Of a stretch of 64,000 nt of DNA, positions 1,448-61,450 are shown piece by piece; position 1 is the first letter of the stretch, and every line of letters starts with the position of its first letter. The translations under genes were made by a program, and so were the position numbers. Source of the DNA: an uncultured bacterium (GTDB lineage Bacteria; Hydrothermota; UBA3072; B12-G15); NCBI GenBank assembly GCA_965612735.1, contig CBFDSV010000003.1:6113-70112 (forward strand). Reading direction: 5' to 3'. Under the pieces are notes generated by a model that saw nothing but the letters and a program-made list of their open reading frames with translations, searched no databases and was not told where the DNA came from.

Positions 1448-3619
1448 GTGATATTCTTAATCATTGCCAGTTTGATTTCAGGAAGGGTATTTGATAGTAA
1501 AGGAGAGCCAATCCCTGGAGCGAATGTTTTTATCCAGGGGACAGAACGTGGTGCTGCAACAGACCAGGATGGTTGGTTTGTGATAAAGGATGTTTCACCT
1601 GGTGTTTACACGGTTGTGGTCAGTTTTATAGGTTACAGAAGAAAGGTTATAACAGATGTGGTGGTAACAGGAAAGAGGCCAGCAGTTCTTGAGGTTCACC
1701 TTGAAGAGGAGGCATTGAACCTTGGAGGGGCTACAATAATAGATGACTACTTTGTGAGGGAGACAGATAATCCTGCAGGAAGTTTTGTTCTTTCCTACGA
1801 AGAGATAAGGAGAACAACAGGTGCAACAGAGGATATATCAAGGATAACCCATCTGTTCCCGGGTGTAACTGCTCCATCAGATGACAGGAATGACCTTGTT
1901 GTCAGGGGAGGGTCTCCACTGGAGAATGGATTTTATGTGGATGGAATAAGGATACCAAACCCAAACCATTTTTCATCACCTGGAAGTGGAGGGGGTCCCA
2001 TAGGTTTTCTCCAGACATACTTTGTTAAGGAACTGGATGTTCTTACAGGTGGATTCCCTGCAAAATTCGGGGATGCCCTTTCTTCAGTAATTGATATAAA
2101 ATGGAGGAATGGAATTTCAGGTGCCAGAATTTACACCTTTGACCTCTCTATGGCAGGGGCGGGAGTGATACTTGACGGCACAATCGGTGATGCTGGATAT
2201 ATGTTTTCTGGAAGAAGGAGTTATCTTTTCCTCCTGGAGAAGATAGGTGTTTTTGACCTTGAGGGTGTTCCTGAGTACTGGGATATTCAGGGTAAACTAA
2301 CCCTGCCATTCTCCAATGGAAGGATTGACCTTGTAGGGATTGATTCAGACAGCTGGATAAACATAACAGGTTTTGGTTCAGGGGAGGGTACCTTTGATAT
2401 ATGGAATAGGTCTTATCAATATGCAGGTGGAGTGTCTTGCAGATGGGGGATTGGAAATGGTGTAATCTCTATTTATCTTTACAGAACACGGAATAATTAT
2501 CATGTTGATACAGAAGTAAGGGACACCCTTGTTTACTTTAACAGGTCTTATGAGGTTAGAAATACAATGCATGCAGAATGGGAGAACAGTTTTGATAAGG
2601 TTAAACTTACTGTGGGATTTGAGCCATCAATACTCAATTTCAGGCACAGGGTATATGTCAGGAATGAAGTGGACATAGATAGTGATACCACAACCTGGTC
2701 GGGTTCATTATTTCTTCAGTCAAACATAAAAAAGGGCAGGTGGGCATTGAATACAGGGATCAGGTTTGACTACCTTGATATTACAGAGAAGTACTCCATA
2801 TCACCAAGGTGCTCCTTCTCATGGGAGATGAACCCTGTAACATACCTGAACCTTTCAGCAGGGCTTTACAGCCAGCATCCTCAGCCTGTATGGCTCACAT
2901 CAAATATAGGGGGTGAGAAACTTGAGGACATCAAGTGTATCCAGTTTGTTGGAGGGATTGAACATTTAATAAAAGAGGATGTGAAGTTAAAGATAGAGGC
3001 TTACACAAAACACTACAGGAACTATCCTGTTGACACTGTTGACTCAACAAGGATTCTTGCAAATGAGGGAGCATCATATGAGGGATTTATAAACTTTCAT
3101 CCCCTTTCCTCTCAGGGGAAGGGCTCTGCCCATGGTATGGACCTGGTTATCCAGAAGAAATTCACACATGGAAACCATTTTATTCTCTCGTACTCATACA
3201 TAAAAACAGGGTTTATCCCCCTTGATGGGAAAACATATCCATCTGTTTATGAAGTGCCACATACCCTTGATTTTGAAGCAGGTTTCACACCTCTCAAGAA
3301 TTTTGAGATTGGCATAAGGTTCGGATTTGGATATGGAAGAAAATACTTCCCGATTGATTCGCTTGCCTCTGCTACACAGGGGTATACTGTACGTGATTAC
3401 TCCCGTATGGAGACCTATCCACCATACCACAGGCTTGATATTAGAATTGAGAGAAGGGAGTTTAAAAAACACTATTCAGTTGTATGGTATTTTGAGATAG
3501 ACAATGTGTACGGGAGGAAGAATATAAGGGACTATTACTGGGATGATACTGATAAAACGATAAAAACAGCGTACCAGTGGGGCTTCATGCCCGTGGGTGG
3601 ATGCAAGATAGAGTTTTAG
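1448..3619 (+). CDS. TonB-dependent receptor-like outer-membrane protein (CarboxypepD_reg-like N-domain, plug, beta-barrel)
   Basis: GTG start after GGAGG. N-terminus GRVFDSKGEPIPGANVFIQGTERGAATDQDGWFVI matches the CarbopepD_reg fold of SusC/RagA-type receptors. The ...GSPLENGFYVDGIRI stretch is plug-like, and the terminal residue is F as in OM beta-barrels. Confidence 0.6.
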   Translation: MIFLIIASLISGRVFDSKGEPIPGANVFIQGTERGAATDQDGWFVIKDVSPGVYTVVVSFIGYRRKVITDVVVTGKRPAVLEVHLEEEALNLGGATIIDDYFVRETDNPAGSFVLSYEEIRRTTGATEDISRITHLFPGVTAPSDDRNDLVVRGGSPLENGFYVDGIRIPNPNHFSSPGSGGGPIGFLQTYFVKELDVLTGGFPAKFGDALSSVIDIKWRNGISGARIYTFDLSMAGAGVILDGTIGDAGYMFSGRRSYLFLLEKIGVFDLEGVPEYWDIQGKLTLPFSNGRIDLVGIDSDSWINITGFGSGEGTFDIWNRSYQYAGGVSCRWGIGNGVISIYLYRTRNNYHVDTEVRDTLVYFNRSYEVRNTMHAEWENSFDKVKLTVGFEPSILNFRHRVYVRNEVDIDSDTTTWSGSLFLQSNIKKGRWALNTGIRFDYLDITEKYSISPRCSFSWEMNPVTYLNLSAGLYSQHPQPVWLTSNIGGEKLEDIKCIQFVGGIEHLIKEDVKLKIEAYTKHYRNYPVDTVDSTRILANEGASYEGFINFHPLSSQGKGSAHGMDLVIQKKFTHGNHFILSYSYIKTGFIPLDGKTYPSVYEVPHTLDFEAGFTPLKNFEIGIRFGFGYGRKYFPIDSLASATQGYTVRDYSRMETYPPYHRLDIRIERREFKKHYSVVWYFEIDNVYGRKNIRDYYWDDTDKTIKTAYQWGFMPVGGCKIEF

Positions 3620-3844
3620 AGTGAGAAAAGCTTTCAGCAATTTTGCATAACTGTTAATTTTGTTGAAATATGGATCGGGATTGGTTGGTAACTTTATCAT
3701 TTCCTCTTTGAATGATTTAATAAATTCTTTTCTGCAAACCAAACCATTATCTGTTTAAATTTCAAAGAGTTGGGAAAAGAAAAAAACACTTGACAAATGA
3801 AAAAAATTTGTTTAACTAACAAAAAACCCAAAAAAGGAGCGCAA

Positions 3845-6800
3845 ATGTTTCTTTTCTTTCTCATTTCTCAAACTTTTAACTGGGTTCATGTTTCAAATGG
3901 AACTGCAAGTGCTGGTTCTTCTTCAGATTGTGATTATGCCTATTCTGTAGTTGTTTCAAACGATACCATTTTTTCTGGTGGTTTTATTGGAAACACCTAT
4001 AAGGCAGGCCACATTGTTGCCCTTGATACATCAGGAACATCTCTATGGACCTATACTGGTACCTATCCAACTTCTGACTGTGAGATATACGACATCGTTA
4101 GTGATGGTGAAGGAAATATCTATGCAACAGGATATTTAATTCAGAGTTCTCCTGATATCTGGATACTGAAGATAAAAGACGGTAGCCTTGTATGGGAAAA
4201 AACCTATGATGGTGGTGTCAGTGGGTTTGATATCGGACATTGTATCACATACGGAACAGATAGTTATATTTACATTGCTGGTGAAAACGAAGCCCCTTCA
4301 GATTCGGGTGCCAATATATGTATTCTGAAGGTGGATACAGCAGGAAATATCTTACACGAAATCACCATTGATGGCGGATACAGTGCAGACAGGCCAAACG
4401 ATATTCTTTACACAGAGGTGAATGGAGAACCCTATATATATGTTGCTGGATACATGATGAAAAAAAATCCTGTCAGTGGAATGCCTGAAAGAAGATTCTA
4501 TGTTTGCAAGTTTGATACTGCTTTATCCCCGACCTCTTTAGAAAGTTACATTTTTACGCAGGTTTCCAACAGCGAAGCCTATGCAATAACAAGATTCCCT
4601 GATGGTAACATCTATGTGGTGGGATACGAGAACAAAAGTTTGCCCTGGGGAGAAGAGATATCGGTCGTAGCACTCACACCAGATACCCTTGGAGAAGTAT
4701 TCCATTATTTCTATCACGGAACAAATGGTGATTCAAATGGAAATTCGGATAGGGGTTATGATATTGTTTCTGATAATTCAGGATACCTTTATTTATGCGG
4801 ATATTCATATTACGATGCACAACAGGTAAATAATGCAGTAATTATCTGTATAGATACCCTTGGAAATCAACAATGGCTATACGAATATAATCCGCATCTA
4901 TACACACCCGACGATATTTTCCGTTCCATTACCATTTATAAAAATTTTGTTTTTGCAACAGGTTATACACTTCCCTATGGCACTGTGTATAGAAAACTTC
5001 TACTTGCAGGATTGACCACTTCTGGAACAGAAATCTTTAACACCTATTACCCTGATGGCGATTCATCTGAAGGATACAATGTTGTTTATAGCAATGGTAA
5101 CCTTTATATTGCAGGAATGGTTGAAGAAACAAATGACCACAAGTTCGCAGTGTTCTCTTACAGTGTGGAGATTGACACCATTCCACCAGCAAAGGTTACA
5201 CTTATCTCTCCTGATAGTGGTATAATTTCTTCTCAGACCGCACAGGTGTTTACATGGAAGAGTGTTACAGATGCCTCTGGAATAAAAGGATACATTTTCC
5301 AGTTAAGTTATGAACCTTCTTTTGCTTCTACTATTATTGATACAATGCTTTCGGACACAGCCTTCTCACAGAACTTTTCCAATGACACAACCTTTTACTG
5401 GAGGGTTCAGGCTTTAGATTCTGCTGGCAATTATGGGGAATGGTCAAATATCTGGGACATAACAATTGACGGAACTGTTCCTACAACCCCTGTGCTTATC
5501 TCACCTGTTAATGACACAATACTTTACCTCTCAAGCGTTCAATTCCAGTGGACATCTTCATCAAAGGGAACACCTGTTCACTATGTAATCAAAATAGATT
5601 CAATAGGTCCAGGGTTTATTTCGCCTTTCCTTGTAGATACAGTGGACACAAACGTTTACAACTATACCTTTACACAGGATGGTGAATTCTGGTGGAGTAT
5701 TCTTGCCTTTGACGATGCAGGAAATACAAGTGGAACCAGTATAGACTCTTTTATTCTGGATAAAACCCCTCCTGTAATAGACTCTGTAACAATCTGGACT
5801 GATACAACCTACAGAGGTCCTTTTGAGGTGCGAATGAAGGTAGTGGATGTTTCACCATTATCAGCGGTTGAATTATATTATCATATTAACAGTGGAACCT
5901 CGGTTACATCCAATCCTGTTTCCATAGGCAACAACTGGTTTGTTGATACAATCCCTGAAATTCCTGGAACCGAAGAAGACACTGTTTATTATTCAATTTA
6001 TGCAGCAGACGCAGGAGGTAATGAATCAGAGTATCCATCTGCAGGTGCAATTTCTTTCCGTGTGCTTGAAGACACGACTTCATATACAATCGTCTGGGAG
6101 AATGACTTTGAATCCGATAGCGGGAATATGGAGGCCGCAGGTGACTGGGAGTGGGGAGACCCTGAATATTCAGGAAGTTACTCAGGTCCCTCTGATTCCC
6201 ACTCTGGAACCCTGTGCTGGGGAACTGTCCTCACAGGGGATTACTCAAATTCCTCCAATTCCATTCTGACAACACCACCTATAACCATACCTGCAACCTT
6301 AGATAGTTTTGTGTATCTTTCCTTCTATATGTGGTTTTACAGTGAAAATTATTATGATGGTGGAAATGTAAAAATCTCACTTGATAATACAACTTTCTCC
6401 GTTATCCAGCCGCTTTTCCCTTCTTATGATACAGTTATATATTCTGGAAACGCAGGAATTCCAGGAGAAAACGCGTGGACTGATACAATTGGTGCACATA
6501 ACTGGATACAAGCAAAGTTTGACCTCTCAAACTATGTGGGTGAGACAGTTTATATAAGATTCCACTTCGGAAGCGATGGAAGTGTTGTCCGTCCAGGATG
6601 GTATATTGATGATGTCACAATATATGGACTCGGACGAACAGGAACTGTGTCAAAGGATATACCTGAAAAAGACTTCTTATGTGTAGACCCCCTAAGTGAG
6701 AAACTTGAAATCACCTTTGGTCTCTCGCATCAGACTGATATCAGTATTAGGATATATGATATTACTGGCAGGCTTGTAAGAAAACCCATAAGAGGCAGTT

Positions 6801-45422: not shown

Positions 45423-45859
45423 TTTATCATCTCTGCTATTACAAAGCCCATGAGGAGTCCCATCATGAATGTGATTGAAAGCATCTTTGCGTCAATCAGT
45501 TCCCTCTTATATCCCATTTTTATTGCGAAGAAGGTGAGCAGGTTACCAACACCATTCACAAGGAGAACCAGCGGGATTGCAAAGAACTTTACAATCAATG
45601 GTCCAACACCAGGAACAACGCTTATAGTTCCAAGGAGTGCCTGAATGCCCTGGCTCAAAATCCCTATGAGAAAGACAATAGAACCCACAAGGAATTTATC
45701 CCATCTGAATTTTATTGTGAGGAGTATCATTACAACTGCAAACACAAGCCATAGAACAAAGGAGATTACTTTTTTCTTATTCCTGGGAACCTTTGAAATT
45801 TCAAGTTCCTCAATCTCTTCTTCAAGTTCTTTTTCCAGTTCCTTTATATTTTTAGCCAT
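45419..45859 (-). CDS. Hypothetical small membrane protein (acidic coiled N-terminus plus 3-4 TM helices)
   Basis: ORF overlaps its neighbours by 4 and 16 bp. Hydrophobic helices are present. Confidence 0.4.
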   Translation of the reverse strand: MAKNIKELEKELEEEIEELEISKVPRNKKKVISFVLWLVFAVVMILLTIKFRWDKFLVGSIVFLIGILSQGIQALLGTISVVPGVGPLIVKFFAIPLVLLVNGVGNLLTFFAIKMGYKRELIDAKMLSITFMMGLLMGFVIAEMIK

Positions 45860-47394
45860 AGTTTTCTATCAAGTGTCCTGTACTGCACTGCCTCTGAAAC
45901 ATGCTCAACCTTAATAATATCACTTCCATCAATGTCCGCAATGGTCCTTGAAAGTTTGAGTATCCTGTCATAGGCCCTTGCAGAAAAACCGAATTTTTTC
46001 ATTGCTGTTTCCAGGATTGTCTCAGCATCGGATTGAAGTTTACAGAATTCTTTCATCATCTTTGGTGTGAGCATGCTATTTGTTGATATCCCCATGTCCC
46101 TGTACCTGTTTTTCTGAATCTCCCTTGCCCTTTTGACCCTTTCCCTCATGTCCTTTGAGGATGTTGAAGGTGTATCCCCTTTGAGGTCTTCAAACTTCAC
46201 CCTTGGAACATCAATGTGGATATCTATTCTATCAAGAAGGGGACCTGATATCTTCCCCACATATCTGTCTATCTGACCTGCTGTGCATGTACACTCAACA
46301 TAAGGGTCTCCAAAGTATCCACATGGGCATGGGTTCATTGCTGCAACAAGCATAAATCGTGCAGGGAATGTTGCGTGGTGATGTGCACGGGAAACAGTAA
46401 CAATGCCATCCTCCAGAGGCTGCCTCAAAACCTCAAGCACATCCCTTCTGAATTCAGGGAGTTCATCAAGGAATAAGACACCATTGTGGGCAAGGCTCAC
46501 CTCACCTGGTTTTGGGTGTGTCCCACCACCTATAAGCCCTGCATACGAAACAGTATGGTGAGGTGCCCTGAATGGCCTTGTATATACAATTGGGGTATCA
46601 GAGGGAAGCATACCAGCAGCAGAATGGATCTTTGTTGATTCAATGGCCTCCTCAAGTTCCATCTCTGGAAGTATGGTGGGAATCCTTCTTGCAAGCATGG
46701 TCTTGCCAGACCCTGGAGGACCAATCATCAGGATGTTATGCCCACCTGCTGCAGCAACCTCAATCGCCCTCTTTGCAGGCTCCTGGCCTTTAACATCGGA
46801 AAAATCTATGTGATAGATTGAGGAAATCCTGAAGATATTTTCCCTGTCAATCATAAAAGGCTGGGGGAGTGGAGGAGTGAGTATCTCAACTGCCTCTTTA
46901 AGGTCTCCAGCAGGAAAAACAGGAACCTCCACCATTGATGCCTCAACCGCATTCTTTCTGGGACAGAGTATTCCCTGCAGACCCTCCTCCCTTGCAAGTA
47001 TGGATGAGGCAAGTGCACCCCTGACACCTCTCAATTCACCATCAAGTGCCAGTTCACCAATAATGAGGAATTTCTCAAGATTTTCAGGGGAAATCTGACC
47101 ACTTGCCGCAAGAATACCAAGGGCAATGGAAAGGTCAAGTGCGGTCCCCTCCTTACGTATATCTGCTGGAGCAAGGTTCACTGTTATCCTTTTGTTGTTG
47201 GGGAATGAGAAGCCAGAGTTTTTTATTGCTGTTTCCACCCTCTCCCTTGATTCCTTCACAGCGGTTTCAGGGAGACCAACAATGGTGAATGCTGGAAGTC
47301 CCCTTCCAAGATTTACCTCAACAACAACCTTTTTTGCCTCAACACCATACAGGGTGTATGAATTCAATCTGAAAAACATTTCTGGATTATACAT
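45844..47394 (-). CDS. YifB/ComM-family Mg-chelatase-like AAA+ ATPase
   Basis: ChlI-type Walker A MIGPPGSGKTMLARR. N-terminal Lon-like domain. C-terminal Mg-chelatase domain. Confidence 0.85.
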   Translation of the reverse strand: MYNPEMFFRLNSYTLYGVEAKKVVVEVNLGRGLPAFTIVGLPETAVKESRERVETAIKNSGFSFPNNKRITVNLAPADIRKEGTALDLSIALGILAASGQISPENLEKFLIIGELALDGELRGVRGALASSILAREEGLQGILCPRKNAVEASMVEVPVFPAGDLKEAVEILTPPLPQPFMIDRENIFRISSIYHIDFSDVKGQEPAKRAIEVAAAGGHNILMIGPPGSGKTMLARRIPTILPEMELEEAIESTKIHSAAGMLPSDTPIVYTRPFRAPHHTVSYAGLIGGGTHPKPGEVSLAHNGVLFLDELPEFRRDVLEVLRQPLEDGIVTVSRAHHHATFPARFMLVAAMNPCPCGYFGDPYVECTCTAGQIDRYVGKISGPLLDRIDIHIDVPRVKFEDLKGDTPSTSSKDMRERVKRAREIQKNRYRDMGISTNSMLTPKMMKEFCKLQSDAETILETAMKKFGFSARAYDRILKLSRTIADIDGSDIIKVEHVSEAVQYRTLDRKLWLKI

Positions 47395-47499
47395 GCCTGC
47401 GATGAACAGTCAAGCCTCGCCGCCAGATTTTAGACATCTGGATTTGTCAATAATCATATGGGGTATTATTAAAGTTTCCCAAATTTTTTTGGAAATGGC

Positions 47500-47527
47500 T
47501 TGACTTTTTACTTCTCTTTTCTATAAA
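47500..47527 (+). promoter_or_regulatory. Sigma-70-like promoter TTGACT-N16-TATAAA(AT)
   Basis: Good -35 and -10 hexamers about 55 nt upstream of the HTH ORF. Confidence 0.5.
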
Positions 47528-47583
47528 ATCATTAAGTGATATTAAATGATAAGCTCTGGCAGGTTCAAAAGGAGATAAAAATA

Positions 47584-47759
47584 ATGATCCTTGAAGAGAC
47601 CGCAAGATATCTAAAAAAAGAAAAATTACTCTTTATAAAACGGCAAGAGAAGGTAAAATCCCTACGGAGGTGACAATGTTTATAGTATTAAAAGATTTTG
47701 TTTGTTTTTCCAGAGGATGCACTAAGTGCGGATATAACCACGTTAGACGCAATGGTTAA
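47584..47759 (+). pseudogene. Excisionase/AlpA-type HTH (HTH_17-like) gene disrupted by a -1 frameshift
   Basis: Frame A reads MILEETARYLKKEKLLFIKR... and stops after 28 aa. A -1 shift continues as ...AREGKIPTEVTMF...CTKCGYNHVRRNG*. Joined, this gives the Xis motif (..YLK..K.LY.LI.EGKIP). Confidence 0.45.
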
Positions 47760-48332
47760 ATGGAGAGGATGGCTATGATTAAAATTAGAACGCTAAAGAA
47801 CCTCAATGCTAATGACTTGAGACAACTTTCAAGAAACTATGTTTCAACGGCCAAATATGTCGTCAAAAAGACCGAAACGCACGAACGTACAGTCATCACC
47901 CTCAAACTCACTGCCTTAGATAAGCCTTATGTAAAACATGATGATCTCGATGACACATTGTTGGATCGGTATGAACAAGTTGTTCAGCAGGGGTTATCTC
48001 TGGGAGCATACGATGGTGACCGGCTGGTTGGTATCGTTATTGCGGAGCAGGAGAGTTGGAATCGTAGCCTATGGGTCTGGGAATTCTGTGTTGCCGAGAC
48101 GCATAGGAGGAGGGGCATAGGAAAACAACTTATGGAGGCCCTGGCTGATAAAGCTAAAGAGGTTGGTATGCGAGTCATTGTTTGCGAGACTCAAAATTAT
48201 AATGTGCCTGCAATCGAATTCTATCGCAAGGTTGGTTTCGAGATTGAAGGGATTGACCTTTCCTACTACTCCAATAGAGATATGACGGAAGGGGAAGTGG
48301 CAATTTTCATGAAGAGGAAGCTGGAATCGTAG
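47760..48332 (+). CDS. GNAT-family N-acetyltransferase resembling streptothricin acetyltransferase (Sat/STAT) family
   Basis: WNRSLWVWEFCVAETHRRRGIGKQLMEAL...VIVCETQNYNVPAIEFYRKVGFEIEGIDLSYY aligns block-for-block with Sat/Nat1-type acetyltransferases. Arg/Ala codon choice (CGT, CGC, GCG) differs from the neighbouring genes. Confidence 0.7.
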   Translation: MERMAMIKIRTLKNLNANDLRQLSRNYVSTAKYVVKKTETHERTVITLKLTALDKPYVKHDDLDDTLLDRYEQVVQQGLSLGAYDGDRLVGIVIAEQESWNRSLWVWEFCVAETHRRRGIGKQLMEALADKAKEVGMRVIVCETQNYNVPAIEFYRKVGFEIEGIDLSYYSNRDMTEGEVAIFMKRKLES

Positions 48333-48442
48333 AAATAGGATATCTTCAGATAGTCACTGCGCCTAACAGCATATTTGCGACGCTTCGCTAAATTGCCTAA
48401 AGGCAACTTCGCAAACACGCTTGCCGTTATCGGAAAGAAATG

Positions 48443-48471
48443 GGTGCCGAGCGTTCACAAGTTCACAACTC
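48443..48471. repeat. Left copy of a perfect 29-bp inverted repeat (GGTGCCGAGCGTTCACAAGTTCACAACTC)
   Basis: Exact reverse complement occurs at 48783-48811. Confidence 0.95.
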
Positions 48472-48782
48472 ACATTCTTTATTTTTTTTATCCCCATTTT
48501 TCTAATTTGCTGATTTTTAGACTGATGCAGTTAATTGATATGTATTTTGTCCTTTTTCTTTTTTTGTTTTGCATATATGTTTACAAGTGTTAGGGTGCTT
48601 TTATAGTTGATTTTTTAATTATGATTTTAATAACAGGGGTATTATTTTTGTCAGAGAAATTATTAACAGGGATGATTTTTAAGTTTATTGTGATGAGTAC
48701 CTTAGATGGGTGGTATGGGTTAGTGGAGGCTGTGGTGGTAAGGTATAAATTTCTGGTAAAATGGGAATGGATGATAGGGATA

Positions 48783-48811
48783 GAGTTGTGAACTTGTGAA
48801 CGCTCGGCACC
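48783..48811. repeat. Right copy of the perfect 29-bp inverted repeat
   Basis: GAGTTGTGAACTTGTGAACGCTCGGCACC is the reverse complement of 48443-48471. The 311-bp spacer is AT-rich. Confidence 0.95.
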
Positions 48812-48859
48812 ATGGGGTTTATTGATTGACTAATTCCCTTTTTTTTGTATATTTCTCCT

Positions 48860-50308
48860 ATGGAAAAGGAACTTGACCAGGTAAGAATAAGGAAAGAAAA
48901 GGTGCAGAGATTGAGGGAGATGGGGATTGACCCATTCCCCTATATCTTTTTTAGAACCCATTTTTCTGAGGAGGTCAAAGAAAACTTTGATTCCCTTGAG
49001 GAGAAAGAGGTTGTTGTAGCGGGAAGGCTTGTTTCCAGAAGACTGCATGGCAAGGCAGGTTTTGTGCATATTGAGGATGACAGGGGTAGAATACAGATTT
49101 ACTTCAAGTACGACACCCTTCAGGATAGATACGCACTGGTAAAACTCCTTGACCTGGGAGATTTTATTGGTGTAAAGGGTAAAGTTTTCAGGACAAAGAC
49201 AGGTGAGGTCACTGTCTGGGCAGAGAATGTGGAACTCCTCTCAAAGGCACTCCATCCGCCACCAGAAAAGTATCATGGATTGAAGGATATTGAATTGAGG
49301 TACAGGAACAGACACCTTGACCTCATGGCGAACCCTGAGGTGAGGGATAGATTCAGGATGAGAACAAGGATAATTCAGGGTATCAGAGAATTCTTTGTTA
49401 AGGAAGGATTCCTTGAGGTTGAGACACCCGTTCTCCAGCCAAGGTATGGTGGGGCATTTGCAAGGCCATTCATAACCCATTACAATGCACTTGACAGGGA
49501 TTACTTTCTGAGGATAGCCAATGAGATTTACTTAAAGAGATTAATCATAGGTGGATTTGAGAAGGTTTTTGAGATGGGTAAGATGTTCAGAAACGAAGGG
49601 CTTGACAGATTCCATAATCCTGAATTCACGAACCTTGAGGCATACCAGGCTTATGCGGATTACAATGTGATGATGGAACTAGTGGAAAATCTATTTTTAT
49701 ACCTTTCAAAGGATGTCCTGAAAAAAGATAGTTTCACCTTCCAGGGTATGGAAATCGTGATAAAGGAAAAATGGGAAAGGATTACATACTTTGGTGCACT
49801 TGAGAAGTACACAGGTATTGACTTTTATCCACTTGACAAGGAAGAGACAAAGAGGAAGGCAGAGGAACTGGGTGTTGATACAGAGGGTAAGGTAACAAAG
49901 GGCAAGATACTGGATGCCATCTTTGATAAGTGTGTCCAGCCAGACCTTGTTCAACCTGTGTTTGTTATTGATTATCCTGTTGATATAACACCACTTGCAA
50001 AGAAGAAGAGGGGGGATGACAATCTTGTTGAGAGGTTTGAACCCTTCATGGCAATGACCGAGATAGGTAATGCTTACTCAGAACTGAACAATCCTGAGGA
50101 ACAGAAGGAGAGATTCCTCTTTCAGCAGTCGTTGAGGGAAAAGGGAGACATGGAGGCTACCCCCATAGATGAGGACTTTATTCAGGCAATGATGTATGGT
50201 ATGCCACCCACTGGTGGCCTTGGTCTTGGTGTTGATAGAGTAGTGATGCTTCTCCTTGATGTCCCCAGTATCAGGGATGCAATCCTCTTCCCCCAGTTAA
50301 GGGAATGA
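48860..50308 (+). CDS. lysS: Lysine--tRNA ligase (class II)
   Basis: OB-fold N-domain. Class II motifs (FRNEG; ...GGLGLGVDRVVMLL). Confidence 0.95.
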   Translation: MEKELDQVRIRKEKVQRLREMGIDPFPYIFFRTHFSEEVKENFDSLEEKEVVVAGRLVSRRLHGKAGFVHIEDDRGRIQIYFKYDTLQDRYALVKLLDLGDFIGVKGKVFRTKTGEVTVWAENVELLSKALHPPPEKYHGLKDIELRYRNRHLDLMANPEVRDRFRMRTRIIQGIREFFVKEGFLEVETPVLQPRYGGAFARPFITHYNALDRDYFLRIANEIYLKRLIIGGFEKVFEMGKMFRNEGLDRFHNPEFTNLEAYQAYADYNVMMELVENLFLYLSKDVLKKDSFTFQGMEIVIKEKWERITYFGALEKYTGIDFYPLDKEETKRKAEELGVDTEGKVTKGKILDAIFDKCVQPDLVQPVFVIDYPVDITPLAKKKRGDDNLVERFEPFMAMTEIGNAYSELNNPEEQKERFLFQQSLREKGDMEATPIDEDFIQAMMYGMPPTGGLGLGVDRVVMLLLDVPSIRDAILFPQLRE

Positions 50309-51519
50309 ATTTTATTTTTTTCATAGCAAAGAGATATATAAGGATAAAAAAGGGAGAATTTTTCCGTTCCCTGATAACCATTTTCTCTGTAACGGGAGTA
50401 GCCCTTGGTGTTGCCACACTCATCGTTGTCCTCTCTGTGATGAACGGTATGAGCAATGATTTAAGGGAAAAGATTCTGGGAACAAATGGTCACATCATGG
50501 TATCAAAATTCTACGGTGAGGAGATATACAATGTGAATGCTGTGATTGATAGTATAAAACATAATATACCTGAAGTGGTGGGAGCAACACCCTATATCTT
50601 CTCAAAGATTCTGATAAGGCATGGGAATTTCACAGATGGCGTGATTATAAGAGGGGTGGACACTCTCACAATGGACCAGGTGAGCAACCTTAGAAAGAAG
50701 GTTATCCTTGGAAGGTTTGATGTCTCTGATAATGGGGTTGTGCTGGGGAATTACCTTGCTGATGGTCTCAGGGCACATGTGGGTGATACTGTGGAGATTG
50801 CAGTCCCATTCGGTGGGATACCAACACCCTTTGGTATCCTTCCAAGGGCTGAAAGGTTTATTGTGAAGGGTATCTTTGATGTTGGTATGTATGAATTCAA
50901 TGCAACCCTTGCCCTTGTATCCATTGAGAAGGCAAAGGGACTCCTTGGAAGGAGTGGTGTAACAGGTATAGAACTATCCATAAAGGACATCTACAAGGCA
51001 CCTGAAGTTTCAAGAAAACTTGTCCTTCTGCTGGGTTATCCTTACAGGGTGAGGAACTGGATTGAGATGAACAGAAATCTATTTGCTGCCCTGAAACTTG
51101 AGAAGTTCGCCATGTTCATTATCCTTGCTTTAATTGTTGTTGTGGCTGCTTTCAACATAGCCAGCATCCTTATAATGATAGTGCTTGAGAAGACAAGGGA
51201 AATAGGAATACTAAGGGCAATGGGTGCAACGGGCAGGAAGATAATGAGGATTTTCATGATAGATGGACTCTTTGTTGGAGGTATAGGCACAACAACAGGG
51301 CTTATTATAGGGTATGTCCTTTGCTGGGCACTTGGAAAGTACAAGTTTATATCCCTTCCAGCAGACGTTTACTTCCTTGACAAACTCCCTGTAAAAATGC
51401 AACCCCTTGACTTTGTGATTGTAGGGGTTTCTGCAATCATAATATCCTTTCTTGCCACCATATACCCTGCATTGAGGGCATCAAAAATGGACCCTGTGGA
51501 GGCAATAAGGAATGAGTGA
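50305..51519 (+). CDS. FtsX-like ABC transporter permease of the LolC/LolE type
   Basis: MacB/Lol topology: N-terminal TM, large periplasmic domain, three C-terminal TM helices. Confidence 0.75.
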   Translation: MNFIFFIAKRYIRIKKGEFFRSLITIFSVTGVALGVATLIVVLSVMNGMSNDLREKILGTNGHIMVSKFYGEEIYNVNAVIDSIKHNIPEVVGATPYIFSKILIRHGNFTDGVIIRGVDTLTMDQVSNLRKKVILGRFDVSDNGVVLGNYLADGLRAHVGDTVEIAVPFGGIPTPFGILPRAERFIVKGIFDVGMYEFNATLALVSIEKAKGLLGRSGVTGIELSIKDIYKAPEVSRKLVLLLGYPYRVRNWIEMNRNLFAALKLEKFAMFIILALIVVVAAFNIASILIMIVLEKTREIGILRAMGATGRKIMRIFMIDGLFVGGIGTTTGLIIGYVLCWALGKYKFISLPADVYFLDKLPVKMQPLDFVIVGVSAIIISFLATIYPALRASKMDPVEAIRNE

Positions 51520-60483: not shown

Positions 60484-61450
60484 GGACGGAGGTTGACTCT
60501 ATGACACCCTGCTTTTCTCCTTAGTCCTTATATATATTTTCGCCAGGGAAGAGTATTTTAACGTGCGATACGGAGCAAGTTTAATAATCTCAGAATACTT
60601 CATTCCTGCTTCATCCTTTAATAATACAAGAAGTTTGTTACGTAACTCTTTCCCTTTCATGGTATTGGGATTAATTTGTTCTATCTTTATACCATACTGT
60701 TTTTCAAAATCATTTATAACATCTTCAACTGGTCTCATAATGAAATCCTGTCTCCTTTTACGCATAGAAGTTTCTACTTGCTTTCTTCTGTTAAAGTTCT
60801 TTTCTATCTCTGTTTCAAACCCTGAATTTCCCAGAATAAAGCCAAAGCGAGTTTTTACAGGTTTTAGTTTTTTATCCGTTAAAAGCCATTCCTTAAGCAT
60901 TGTTTGGAACTGAGTCTCGCTTCCATAGATGCTCTCGACGAATTCGTTATCAACGAAATCAGAGTTTTCATCTCTGAAATATATGCCCAGGCTTGTCCAT
61001 GGATAATTATAGGGATTATATACAATACCAGCCCTTACCGGATTAAGGAGTACATATATTATAGCGGTTGTTAAATAGTTTTCTTTCTGAATTAAGGTGG
61101 AGAGAAACCTGTTCTGAAATACATACCCAATTCCACCATGTTGCTTCCTATAATAAATAGCATAGGTTCCGTTGAGATAACGCATAAAATCACTCAATCG
61201 TCCGGAGGAGTTTTGAAGGATTAAATGGTAATGGTTGTCAAGAATAGTGTAAGCCAATAGTCTTATGCGGTACTTTTTTACAGATTCTCTTAGAAGATTT
61301 AAAAAGTATTCTTTTGTTTTCTTCCCGAAAAAGATAAATTCGCCTCTTAAGCCCCGGGACATGACATGATGATATGCTCCTTCGTAGGTTACCCTTGAAC
61401 TTCTCATTTTTCTATTATAGTGGAAGGTGTCATAGAGTCAACCTCCGTCC
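60484..61450 (-). mobile_element. IS200/RAYT-like element: HUH tyrosine-transposase gene flanked by perfect 25-bp inverted repeats (GGACGGAGGTTGACTCTATGACACC)
   Basis: IRs at 60484-60508 and 61426-61450 are exact reverse complements. The left end also forms an imperfect hairpin with 60460-60476. The internal gene carries the HUH motif. The element is AT-rich relative to its flanks. Confidence 0.7.
60499..61407 (-). CDS. IS200-like / REP-associated tyrosine (Y1, HUH) transposase-family protein, 302 aa
   Basis: LLAYTILDNHYHLILQ is the HUH motif. YHHVMSRG N-terminal motif and GYVFQNRFLSTLIQKENYL tyrosine region, typical of Y1_Tnp with a long C-terminal extension. Confidence 0.7.
   Translation of the reverse strand: MRSSRVTYEGAYHHVMSRGLRGEFIFFGKKTKEYFLNLLRESVKKYRIRLLAYTILDNHYHLILQNSSGRLSDFMRYLNGTYAIYYRKQHGGIGYVFQNRFLSTLIQKENYLTTAIIYVLLNPVRAGIVYNPYNYPWTSLGIYFRDENSDFVDNEFVESIYGSETQFQTMLKEWLLTDKKLKPVKTRFGFILGNSGFETEIEKNFNRRKQVETSMRKRRQDFIMRPVEDVINDFEKQYGIKIEQINPNTMKGKELRNKLLVLLKDEAGMKYSEIIKLAPYRTLKYSSLAKIYIRTKEKSRVS

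Follow-up and report, generated by a model that had tools for sequence, protein, structure and literature searches.

The yifB-lysS interval of a candidate-division WOR-3 bacterium as a probable strain-variable landing pad for two independent mobile systems

What is the 1.45 kb of DNA that lies between yifB and lysS in an uncultured bacterium, and is it one mobile element or more than one? The question is raised by a window of 64,000 nt (the whole stretch analysed; positions 6,113 to 70,112 of contig CBFDSV010000003.1 in GenBank assembly GCA_965612735.1), for which an earlier note described a near-consensus promoter, a frameshifted Xis-like helix-turn-helix (HTH) reading frame, an acetyltransferase gene of the GNAT superfamily and a perfect 29-bp inverted repeat, and took these together as a decayed mobile element carrying an antibiotic-modifying enzyme. 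Every listed feature is indeed present in the sequence. Nevertheless, the interval is not a decayed resistance island. It can be read, with a probability of roughly 0.8, as a strain-variable landing pad occupied by two independent mobile systems, namely an integron-like platform with a dead recombinase and a gene cassette, and a non-coding element bounded by terminal inverted repeats (TIRs). The locus thereby holds further members of two known kinds of mobile DNA that are unrelated to each other.

The host is a candidate-division WOR-3 bacterium, the group to which all of the nearest named YifB homologues and the contigs of metagenome-assembled genomes (MAGs) carrying the repeat arm belong. 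An independent metagenome contig of the same organism (L001; loci used for comparison are cited by L numbers) matches positions 46844-50826 with one mismatch and no gaps over 3983 nt, so the features described here are not assembly artefacts of one data set. L001, L008 and L011 come from the metagenomes 3300014886, 3300021471 and 3300021468. The suggestion that the interval does not belong to the core genome is borne out by contigs with identical YifB that differ between yifB and lysS, and by relatives at 70% YifB identity in which lysS is not adjacent to yifB. The first of the two systems is best introduced through its cassette, which comprises the following features.

47743-48426, plus strand: integron-type gene cassette of 684 bp, bounded by the crossovers G47742/T47743 (GTTAGAC) and G48426/T48427.
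47775-48332, plus strand: GNAT coding sequence of 185 aa, with a ribosome-binding site (RBS), GGAGAGGA, at 47763-47770.
48361-48432, plus strand: attC site of the GNAT cassette, 72 nt, with R'' box GCCTAAC (48361-48367), L-box stem TTTGCGA/TCGCAAA and R' box G|TTATCG (48426-48432), the bar marking the crossover.
48427-48442, plus strand: 16-nt remnant, TTATCGGAAAGAAATG, of whatever came after the cassette.

The closest homologues of the GNAT protein (96%, 89% and 88% amino acid identity) lie on contigs with wholly different neighbours, in same-strand arrays of small unrelated genes that include methyltransferases, other GNATs and BioY. The DNA that the window shares with the arrays of L002, L004 and L003 is confined to positions 47740-48429 (95%, 88% and 89% identity, respectively), and this homology begins and ends at G|TT crossovers (47740/41 to 48420/29). 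In these arrays the GNAT unit sits behind the attC sites of other cassettes, whereas in the window it sits behind an attI-like site. The array spacers are typical attC sites of the form RYYYAAC...GTTRRRY (for example CCGATAAC...GTTAGGC, and GNAT's own GCCTAAC...GTTAGGC), with which the attC of the window can be aligned in all three loci. The GNAT gene is hence found as a discrete, G|TT-bounded unit in varied contexts, with an attC carrying R'' and R' boxes at its 3' end. The first 11 nt of the remnant downstream of the cassette are identical to the start of a cassette in L002, and L002 reads GTTATCGGAAATGG... after its first attC.

The two ends of the cassette also correspond to each other. 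The R'' sequence GCGCCTAA (reverse complement GTTAGGCGC) can pair with the cassette's 5' end, (G)TTAGACGC, and when TTAGACGC is set against the R'' reverse complement TTAGGCGC, eight of nine positions pair with the crossover G counted. In L003 the 5' end and R'' have changed together (TTATACA / TGTATAA), which is the covariation predicted for a unit that circularises through its attC. The attC was called by manual criteria, these being the RYYYAAC and GTTRRRY boxes, an imperfect inner palindrome and complementarity to the 5' end; a strict scan of the window for RYYYAAC...GTTRRRY with pairing returned few sites, all within coding regions, and missed the true attC because its R' box is a hybrid, which makes such a scan unsuitable as a detector. 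The bottom strand of the L002 attC, in which R' is intact, forms a hairpin with GCCTAAC and GTTAGGC paired (z = -3.8).

In composition the cassette stands apart from its host, in agreement with the foreign codon usage previously remarked upon. CGN codons make up 43% of the arginine codons of the GNAT gene against a host mean of 7% (maximum 32%), and no other of 317 windows of 683 nt reaches the cassette's observed/expected CpG ratio of 0.95, in a host that is strongly CpG-depleted (0.24) and uses AGA/AGG for about 93% of arginine codons across the whole window. The gene had been described as starting directly after the stop codon of the HTH frame, which is literally so for the open reading frame (ORF), opening at 47760 right after the TAA. 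However, the homologues are nearly all 181-186 aa long, which points to ATG 47775, behind the RBS, as the true start; with the start placed there, the abutment of the two frames is incidental.

Is the cassette then a resistance gene? Its product matches Acetyltransf_1 at E 2e-20 (73.5 bits against a gathering threshold of 20.7), placing it in the GNAT superfamily, and it is predicted to be an acetyl-CoA-dependent N-acetyltransferase. The resemblance to Sat/Nat1 enzymes that had been pointed out is real in so far as the nearest structures by sequence are the putative streptothricin acetyltransferase PDB 3pp9 (E 1e-18, full length, residues 4-179 aligning to 8-181 of 3pp9) and the nourseothricin acetyltransferase 5c82, which are also its nearest characterised relatives. 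The step from there to an antibiotic-modifying enzyme does not follow. The match to the STAT family of streptothricin N-acetyltransferases reaches 60.1 bits against a cut-off of 420, and those to Sat2, Sat3 and Sat4 reach 47.9, 49.0 and 47.0 bits against NCBIfam cut-offs of 360, 360 and 380. RimI, at 57.5 bits against a cut-off of 86.4, is about level with STAT, these two being the best NCBIfam matches and both far below cut-off. Plasmid-borne relatives are at most 35% identical, and at 55-65% identity the family is widespread among uncharacterised proteins in MAGs of Chloroflexota, Desulfobacterota and the archaeal Thermoplasmata. A streptothricin-like amine may be offered as the best guess for the substrate, and a doubtful one; the cassette should not be counted as an antibiotic-resistance determinant.

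Upstream of the cassette, the question becomes what received it. The DNA between the yifB-proximal segment and the left crossover of the cassette is organised as a platform, parts of which overlap the start of the cassette.

47480-47748, plus strand: integron-like platform, made up of a promoter, a tyrosine-recombinase stump and an attI-like site.
47500-47529, plus strand: putative platform promoter P1, TTGACT (47500-47505), 18 nt, TAAAAT (47524-47529), agreeing with the consensus at 10 of 12 positions (-10 TAAAAT/TATAAA).
47584-47759, plus strand: recombinase stump with an HTH_17-like N-terminal piece, about 58 codons left, reading towards the cassettes.
47718-47748, plus strand: attI-like site, TGCACTAAGTGCGGATATAACCAC G|TTAGAC (short form GATATAACCAC G|TTA), with the crossover at G47742/T47743.

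The near-consensus promoter of the earlier description is thus confirmed as a sequence, and its -35 hexamer is unchanged, together with a kept leader GATAARCNCTGGCAGG, in at least 12 related loci (L002-L004, L007, L008, L011, L020, L026, L027, L035, L036, L042, L053). A sequence scan found no terminator-like site between P1 and the GNAT gene. P1 would drive the recombinase stump and, by read-through, the cassette.

The attI-like site is the point at which loci part company. Over the full set of loci fetched, the conserved GATATAAMCRV continues at GTTA into ten different right-hand sequences, and the mean pairwise identity at the junction falls from 0.70 in the left 25 nt to 0.36 in the right 25 nt. 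From these junctions we infer recombination in which the conserved left sequence behaves as an attI. In L011, L013 and L042 a long form of the site contains a 47-nt insertion that directly repeats AGTGCKGATAT, recalling the accessory direct repeats of attI1. An alternative is that the GNAT cassette entered a secondary site of attG type, which may be any 5'-GTT-3', and that the conserved sequence upstream has nothing to do with its capture. A preprint (bioRxiv 10.1101/2022.09.11.507474) describes integrases putting cassettes at genomic GTT outside integrons, and the window has one attC only and no integrase. Insertion of this kind is nonetheless very improbable, given ten different sequences at exactly GATATAAMCRV|GTTA behind the same promoter and recombinase remnant in many loci, and a near-complete recombinase gene directly upstream of the homologous site in L054.

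The recombinase remnant corresponds to the frame that had been described as an Xis-like gene needing a -1 frameshift. The frame opened by ATG 47584 stops at 47671-47673, and the -1 frame runs from 47622 to the TAA at 47757-47759. The frameshift itself stands: the A7G of the window (47613-47620) is a real 1-nt deletion, because the relatives L011, L008, L036 and L053 read A7GG, while L042 has the same deletion, as does the independent assembly L001. The window stump has lost a further ~140 nt internally near 47664. What probably has to be given up is the identity as Xis, since this decayed recombination gene is the N-terminal stump of a tyrosine-recombinase gene. The repaired frame matches HTH_17 weakly (E 0.023, 15.4 bits against a cut-off of 27), and HTH_17 scores in general are 13-16.5 bits against the gathering threshold of 27, as weak matches spanning the first half of the model only. 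Less-deleted copies (L008, L013, L036, L053) read M(T/I)L.E..KYLKKGKITLYKTA.E.KI.GVKIG-IGEEEI.GHKSSKTTEIYTH...SP.D... and then the stop codon; in them an old deletion has joined an HTH_17-like N-terminus to the end of a tyrosine recombinase that carries box II and the catalytic tyrosine. After the HTH-like piece they keep only this C-terminal recombinase motif, which the window has lost too.

Searches with the 76-aa remnant protein returned only fragments of 48-131 aa, many with PF00589, and the longer ones match TIGR02249 (integron integrase), XerA, XerC and XerD through their C-termini (E 1e-25 to 1e-33). Look-ups of P0260, P0251 and P0270 gave a frameshifted recombinase copy or truncated ones. 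The most complete relative is L054, a near-full-length copy with a single frameshift and in the same orientation, with a homologous attI-like site about 95 nt further on and then a cassette; the repaired protein reaches 228 bits against XerA (cut-off 220). The block (peptidase, GIDA, AMP-binding) adjoining yifB in the window is conserved in a related WOR-3 genome (L056-L058, 6001-7335), and at its far end there an 82-aa recombinase remnant precedes a gene of the APH family (aminoglycoside phosphotransferase-like).

How far has the content of the platform changed between strains? L011, with a YifB 100% identical to that of the window, retains 95% identity as far as 47735; beyond it come a cassette with a 212-aa gene and a clear attC (GCCTAAC...GTTATAT) and next a cassette for an 85-aa protein and a PEMT-family protein. 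In L008 and L013, again with 100% identical YifB, a 523-aa secreted protein occupies the cassette position. L026 has a HicB/HicA cassette with a typical attC behind the same attI-like site, and then a repeat element; the same contig (1-3768) holds two platform copies 3.5 kb apart, the first of which is the one ahead of this cassette, and in L026 and L007 a paralogous promoter module (TTGACAAAGGCAAA...) would drive a 70-aa gene together with an HD-domain gene of 580 aa. It seems that promoter, genes and repeat element form a recurring unit.

The most extended version of the interval is that of L008 (Ga0190359_1000056, 1700-6010, reverse strand), which reaches 4.2 kb next to an identical YifB. 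Its order is yifB, a 79-nt segment, promoter module, PEGA lipoprotein, 107-aa cassette, a repeat copy A that cuts an attC, a second 79-nt segment, platform, 523-aa BNR/T9SS protein, truncated HIT-like gene, repeat copy B and lysS. Copy B has the truncated HIT-like gene at its left and the unchanged lysS promoter at its right; with copy A truncating an attC and copy B adjoining a truncated gene, the repeats are also sites of rearrangement. Three further contigs with identical yifB (L009, L010, L012) end within 26 nt of the strain divergence point (window 47479 and 47505), which fits a break-up of the assembly by population heterogeneity at the locus.

Such differences could instead have arisen solely by homologous recombination of whole segments, with platform and repeat serving as arms and with no site-specific recombination since the recombinase died. 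The recombinase is dead in all platform copies seen; L008, L036, L042 and L053 share one common deletion junction but carry different cassettes; and the flanks of copy B in L008 (truncated HIT-like gene on one side, a lysS promoter as in the window on the other) indicate rearrangement at the repeat. However, the left breakpoints lie exactly at G|TT and are not scattered in the platform, which is the signature of site-specific exchange, although such exchange could predate import, having occurred in another genome. Homologous recombination as the sole cause is therefore possible, though clearly the less probable explanation, and site-specific capture at the attI-like site is preferred.

The second system, the inverted repeat, lies entirely downstream of the cassette and can be described on its own terms.

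48443-48811, no strand assigned: non-autonomous TIR element of 369 bp, a TIRtron derivative resembling a miniature inverted-repeat transposable element (MITE), with 29-nt arms and a 311-nt AT-rich interior.

The arms are perfect (48443-48471 and 48783-48811; two copies in the window against none expected by chance), and the interior contains no conserved ORF, its sole ORF being an unconserved 56-aa frame. Folding of the repeat region is dominated by the trivial 29-bp stem. Whether the repeat belongs to a multi-copy MITE family, a check proposed along with the original description, was answered in the affirmative by its arm core, found in three genome and 36 metagenome loci. With a 23-nt core, the genome loci are two contigs of another WOR-3 MAG plus a mis-binned one, each time close to a contig end and between different flanks; a 21-nt core recovers the 36 metagenome loci, vent metagenomes among them. 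Complete elements number 21 in the latter, 19 of them 355-442 nt long and two 1048 nt, next to 21 solo ends at contig breaks, and no fewer than 35 different arm-adjacent flanks are represented overall. Relative to lysS, the element points the same way in the window, L001 and L008.

The 1048-bp form has the same arms and is autonomous (L031 3805-4852, L047 7986-9033 and, in part, L006). In L031 and L047 it encodes a 321-aa protein, an IS200-like Y1 transposase, that matches Y1_Tnp at 36.8 bits (cut-off 23), shows a weak Bac_DnaA_C match in its tail, a C-terminal HTH, and carries an HUH motif (HYH) and the tyrosine motif RYIHLNP, its stop codon lying within the right arm. The element of the window thus has the same TIRs as those around a Y1 gene, and belongs to a family present at multiple unrelated sites without a transposase of its own. 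No consistent target-site duplication was seen across copies, as is expected for a Y1 enzyme (IS200/IS605 family). A 3-bp ATG duplication was considered as a general feature and rejected, being present only at the window copy and at one L008 copy. Elsewhere in the window (60485-61449, minus strand) lies a second, different TIRtron, with a 312-aa ORF (60502-61437; Y1_Tnp E 1.8e-9) flanked by a 24-nt inverted repeat (GGACGGAGGTTGACTCTATGACAC / GTGTCATAGAGTCAACCTCCGTCC); its protein is 30% identical to the TIRYT protein of L031 (E 2e-38), and the identity became visible with the full-length L031 protein, a 62-aa L006 fragment having shown no direct similarity to the window gene.

A repeat pair of this form could also be an invertible switch (inverton) that controls lysS or cassette read-through. 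In favour are a perfect 29-bp repeat, the promoter-like sites within the roughly 300 bp that it encloses, and a position immediately ahead of the lysS promoter. This explanation is hardly credible when the element lies in one direction with respect to lysS in the window as in L001 and L008, when it is found at many unrelated loci and in a transposase-bearing form, and when a motif scan and Pfam searches find no invertase nearby.

With both systems in place, the original proposal can be weighed as a whole: one decayed integrative element with promoter, Xis-type gene and resistance GNAT, the 29-bp repeats being its ends or recombination sites. The parts are all adjacent, the interval is accessory, and the repaired frame does match HTH_17, if weakly. 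Yet both repeat arms are downstream of the GNAT gene and enclose just 311 nt of non-coding DNA, and the same arms bound separate elements at no fewer than 17 other sites. The GNAT block moves alone, with its own attC and G|TT boundaries, and the supposed Xis runs on into a recombinase C-terminus in the less-deleted copies. A single element is contradicted by these findings and about as improbable as an inverton, and the interval is better read as two systems side by side.

Several observations weigh against that two-system reading. On the side of the platform, the repaired L054 recombinase, the closest near-complete relative, scores 216 bits against TIGR02249, below the cut-off of 265, and its match is split in two, passing over model positions 177-230, which correspond to the IntI-specific domain; for these two reasons the platform cannot be filed as a canonical integron. 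No intact integrase adjoins any platform copy fetched, and no tyrosine recombinase was found elsewhere in the 64-kb window by a motif scan of six-frame ORFs and by Pfam PF00589 on ten candidate ORFs. As regards the cassette, the window holds a single attC, which folds no better than shuffled sequences (z = -0.6 and -1.6) with the inner stem kept; the poor fold is explained by the hybrid R' half, as expected inside an array. On the side of the repeat, the gene for the cognate TIRYT is absent from the window, whose own Y1 gene is only distantly related and has other flanking repeats. Finally, the interiors of the collected elements range from 94% down to 70% identity to the window, or no detectable similarity, against 27-29 of 29 positions in the arms, an apparent conservation that is inflated because the loci were gathered by an exact 21-nt core.

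On top of the observed anatomy, homologies, junctions, strain variation, and copy numbers and insertion sites of the elements, the following course of events is proposed. The promoterless 684-bp cassette would have entered by a site-specific event in which attC recombined with the attI-like site, and is probably transcribed from the platform promoter, no terminator-like site intervening, and translated from its own RBS. Since the local recombinase is inactive, cassette exchange would now need a recombinase from elsewhere, or homologous recombination with the left-hand platform and the right-hand repeat element as arms. The 369-bp element was presumably placed by a TIRYT acting in trans, through single-stranded DNA intermediates, and read-through transcripts may fold at its 29-bp stem, shortly before the lysS promoter. 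What chiefly remains puzzling is a platform that is conserved and, it appears, still in use, with a recombinase that is dead in all copies seen and whose nearest relative is without the IntI hallmark domain.

The two systems are framed by the following features, which belong to the flanking genes.

45844-47394, minus strand: yifB (NCBIfam TIGR00368, 638 bits).
47413 to 47386, minus strand: yifB promoter-like site, TTGACT, 16 nt, TATAAT (promoter scan).
47395-47479, no strand assigned: yifB-proximal intergenic segment, common to all strain variants, 98-99% identical in L008-L013 up to 47479 and divergent thereafter.
48826-48853, plus strand: lysS promoter-like site, TTGACT, 16 nt, TATATT, immediately to the right of the repeat element.
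From ATG 48860, plus strand: lysS (PRK00484 in NCBIfam, 648 bits; a 482-aa gene call on L001).

A second copy of 47401-47479 is present in L008, and the junction between the element and lysS is the same there as in the window. Around the yifB start (47377-47394), the listed ORF has 516 aa where its homologues have 509-513 aa, an excess of 5-6 residues, and its first codons are overlapped by the minus-strand promoter-like -10; translation probably begins at the second methionine, codon 6. At the other end of the interval, the -10 hexamer of lysS (TATATT) ends 6 nt upstream of ATG 48860, so the lysS mRNA would be leaderless or nearly so. GC skew closely follows gene strand across the whole window. 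A replication origin near 47.3 kb was considered and rejected, as the sign change of the skew there follows gene strand and several such flips occur across the window. Rfam gave no match at E <= 1 in 47300-49000, and viral collections gave no match for either the repeat core or the platform leader pattern.

The tempting view of a resistance island is in this way replaced by a precise anatomy centred on a free-moving GNAT cassette, and the locus offers a worked example of strain-level cassette turnover at one chromosomal junction in an uncultivated phylum. A conserved platform with an always-dead recombinase and a non-canonical relative would, if true, bear on how CALIN elements (attC sites with no intI nearby) are maintained and supplied. 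The repeat element adds a well-populated TIRYT-type family with a clear autonomous partner, a family that could serve to study how Y1 transposases handle terminal inverted repeats. The two systems may also meet outside the window: a GCCTAAC-type box lies within 150 nt in 4 of 42 element flanks (about 0.1 expected), an association with cassette arrays that is real but found in a minority of copies. 

A more far-reaching idea, put forward as a long shot, is that the WOR-3 bacteria of hydrothermal sites have an integron-like capture system of their own. It would consist of a promoter and an attI pad beside a same-orientation recombinase of the Xer/IntI clade, devoid of the IntI-specific domain and sometimes with an N-terminal HTH, the pad continuing to exchange canonical attC cassettes despite the dead local copies. 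If true, this would imply either a trans-acting enzyme other than IntI or selection for the pad as an expression and homology platform. A still weaker addition to this idea is that TIRYT-type elements might favour attC hairpins, or the DNA next to them, as landing sites. A full-text literature search for 'WOR-3' together with 'integron' gave no paper.

How, then, does the locus compare with known systems? Integrons in which intI has the same orientation as the cassettes, and CALINs with intI pseudogenes, are both known (Cury et al., PMC4889954). The locus shares with integron cassettes, CALINs and SALINs a promoterless single-gene unit with G|TT bounds, whose attC has an inner stem and R''/R' boxes, the occurrence of the same cassette in different arrays, strain-specific content at one junction, and an upstream promoter with a recombinase pseudogene. 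The window departs from all of these in having one attC and a stump with an HTH_17-like N-terminus, in that L054, the nearest near-complete relative, is without the IntI-specific insertion and scores below cut-off, in that every platform copy seen is inactivated, and in its WOR-3 host. Of a complete integron it therefore has the attI-like site with varied cassettes and lacks an adjacent functional integrase with an IntI-specific domain; an attC with no intI nearby places it with CALIN/SALIN elements, and its single attC makes it the SALIN case. Likewise, the cassette gene has the streptothricin and nourseothricin acetyltransferases (SatA 3pp9, NAT 5c82, Sat2-4, STAT) as its best structural and family match, with the same size and GNAT core, but at 47-60 bits it differs from them by the distance to cut-offs of 360-420.

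The repeat element has its closest counterpart in TIRtrons, where RAYT-like Y1 genes (TIRYT) are flanked by TIRs able to give rise to families of repeats (Di Nocera et al. 2013, PMC3733652), and a Bac_DnaA_C-like C-terminus is a mark of HUH subclass 2.1 (Quentin et al. 2018, PMC6006769). Like these, L031 and L047 combine Y1_Tnp with a DnaA_C-like tail, their 29-nt TIRs overlap the 3' end of the gene, and gene-less TIR pairs are dispersed. Unlike them, the window arm, starting GGTGCCGA, departs from the motif published for them (GGGGWSAS), the non-autonomous copies have long (300-380 nt), fast-diverging interiors and are not close TIR dimers, and the family was seen across a vent community rather than counted in one finished genome. 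REPIN/RAYT systems (Bertels and Rainey 2011, PMC3116915) differ more in form, in that the window arms are not palindromic REPs, bear no GTAG tag and are separated by a spacer of 311 nt, not tens. What they have in common with the element is the pairing of two inverted short copies into a non-autonomous unit, and the ascription of that unit to a single-copy Y1 transposase with the same sequences on either side of its gene.

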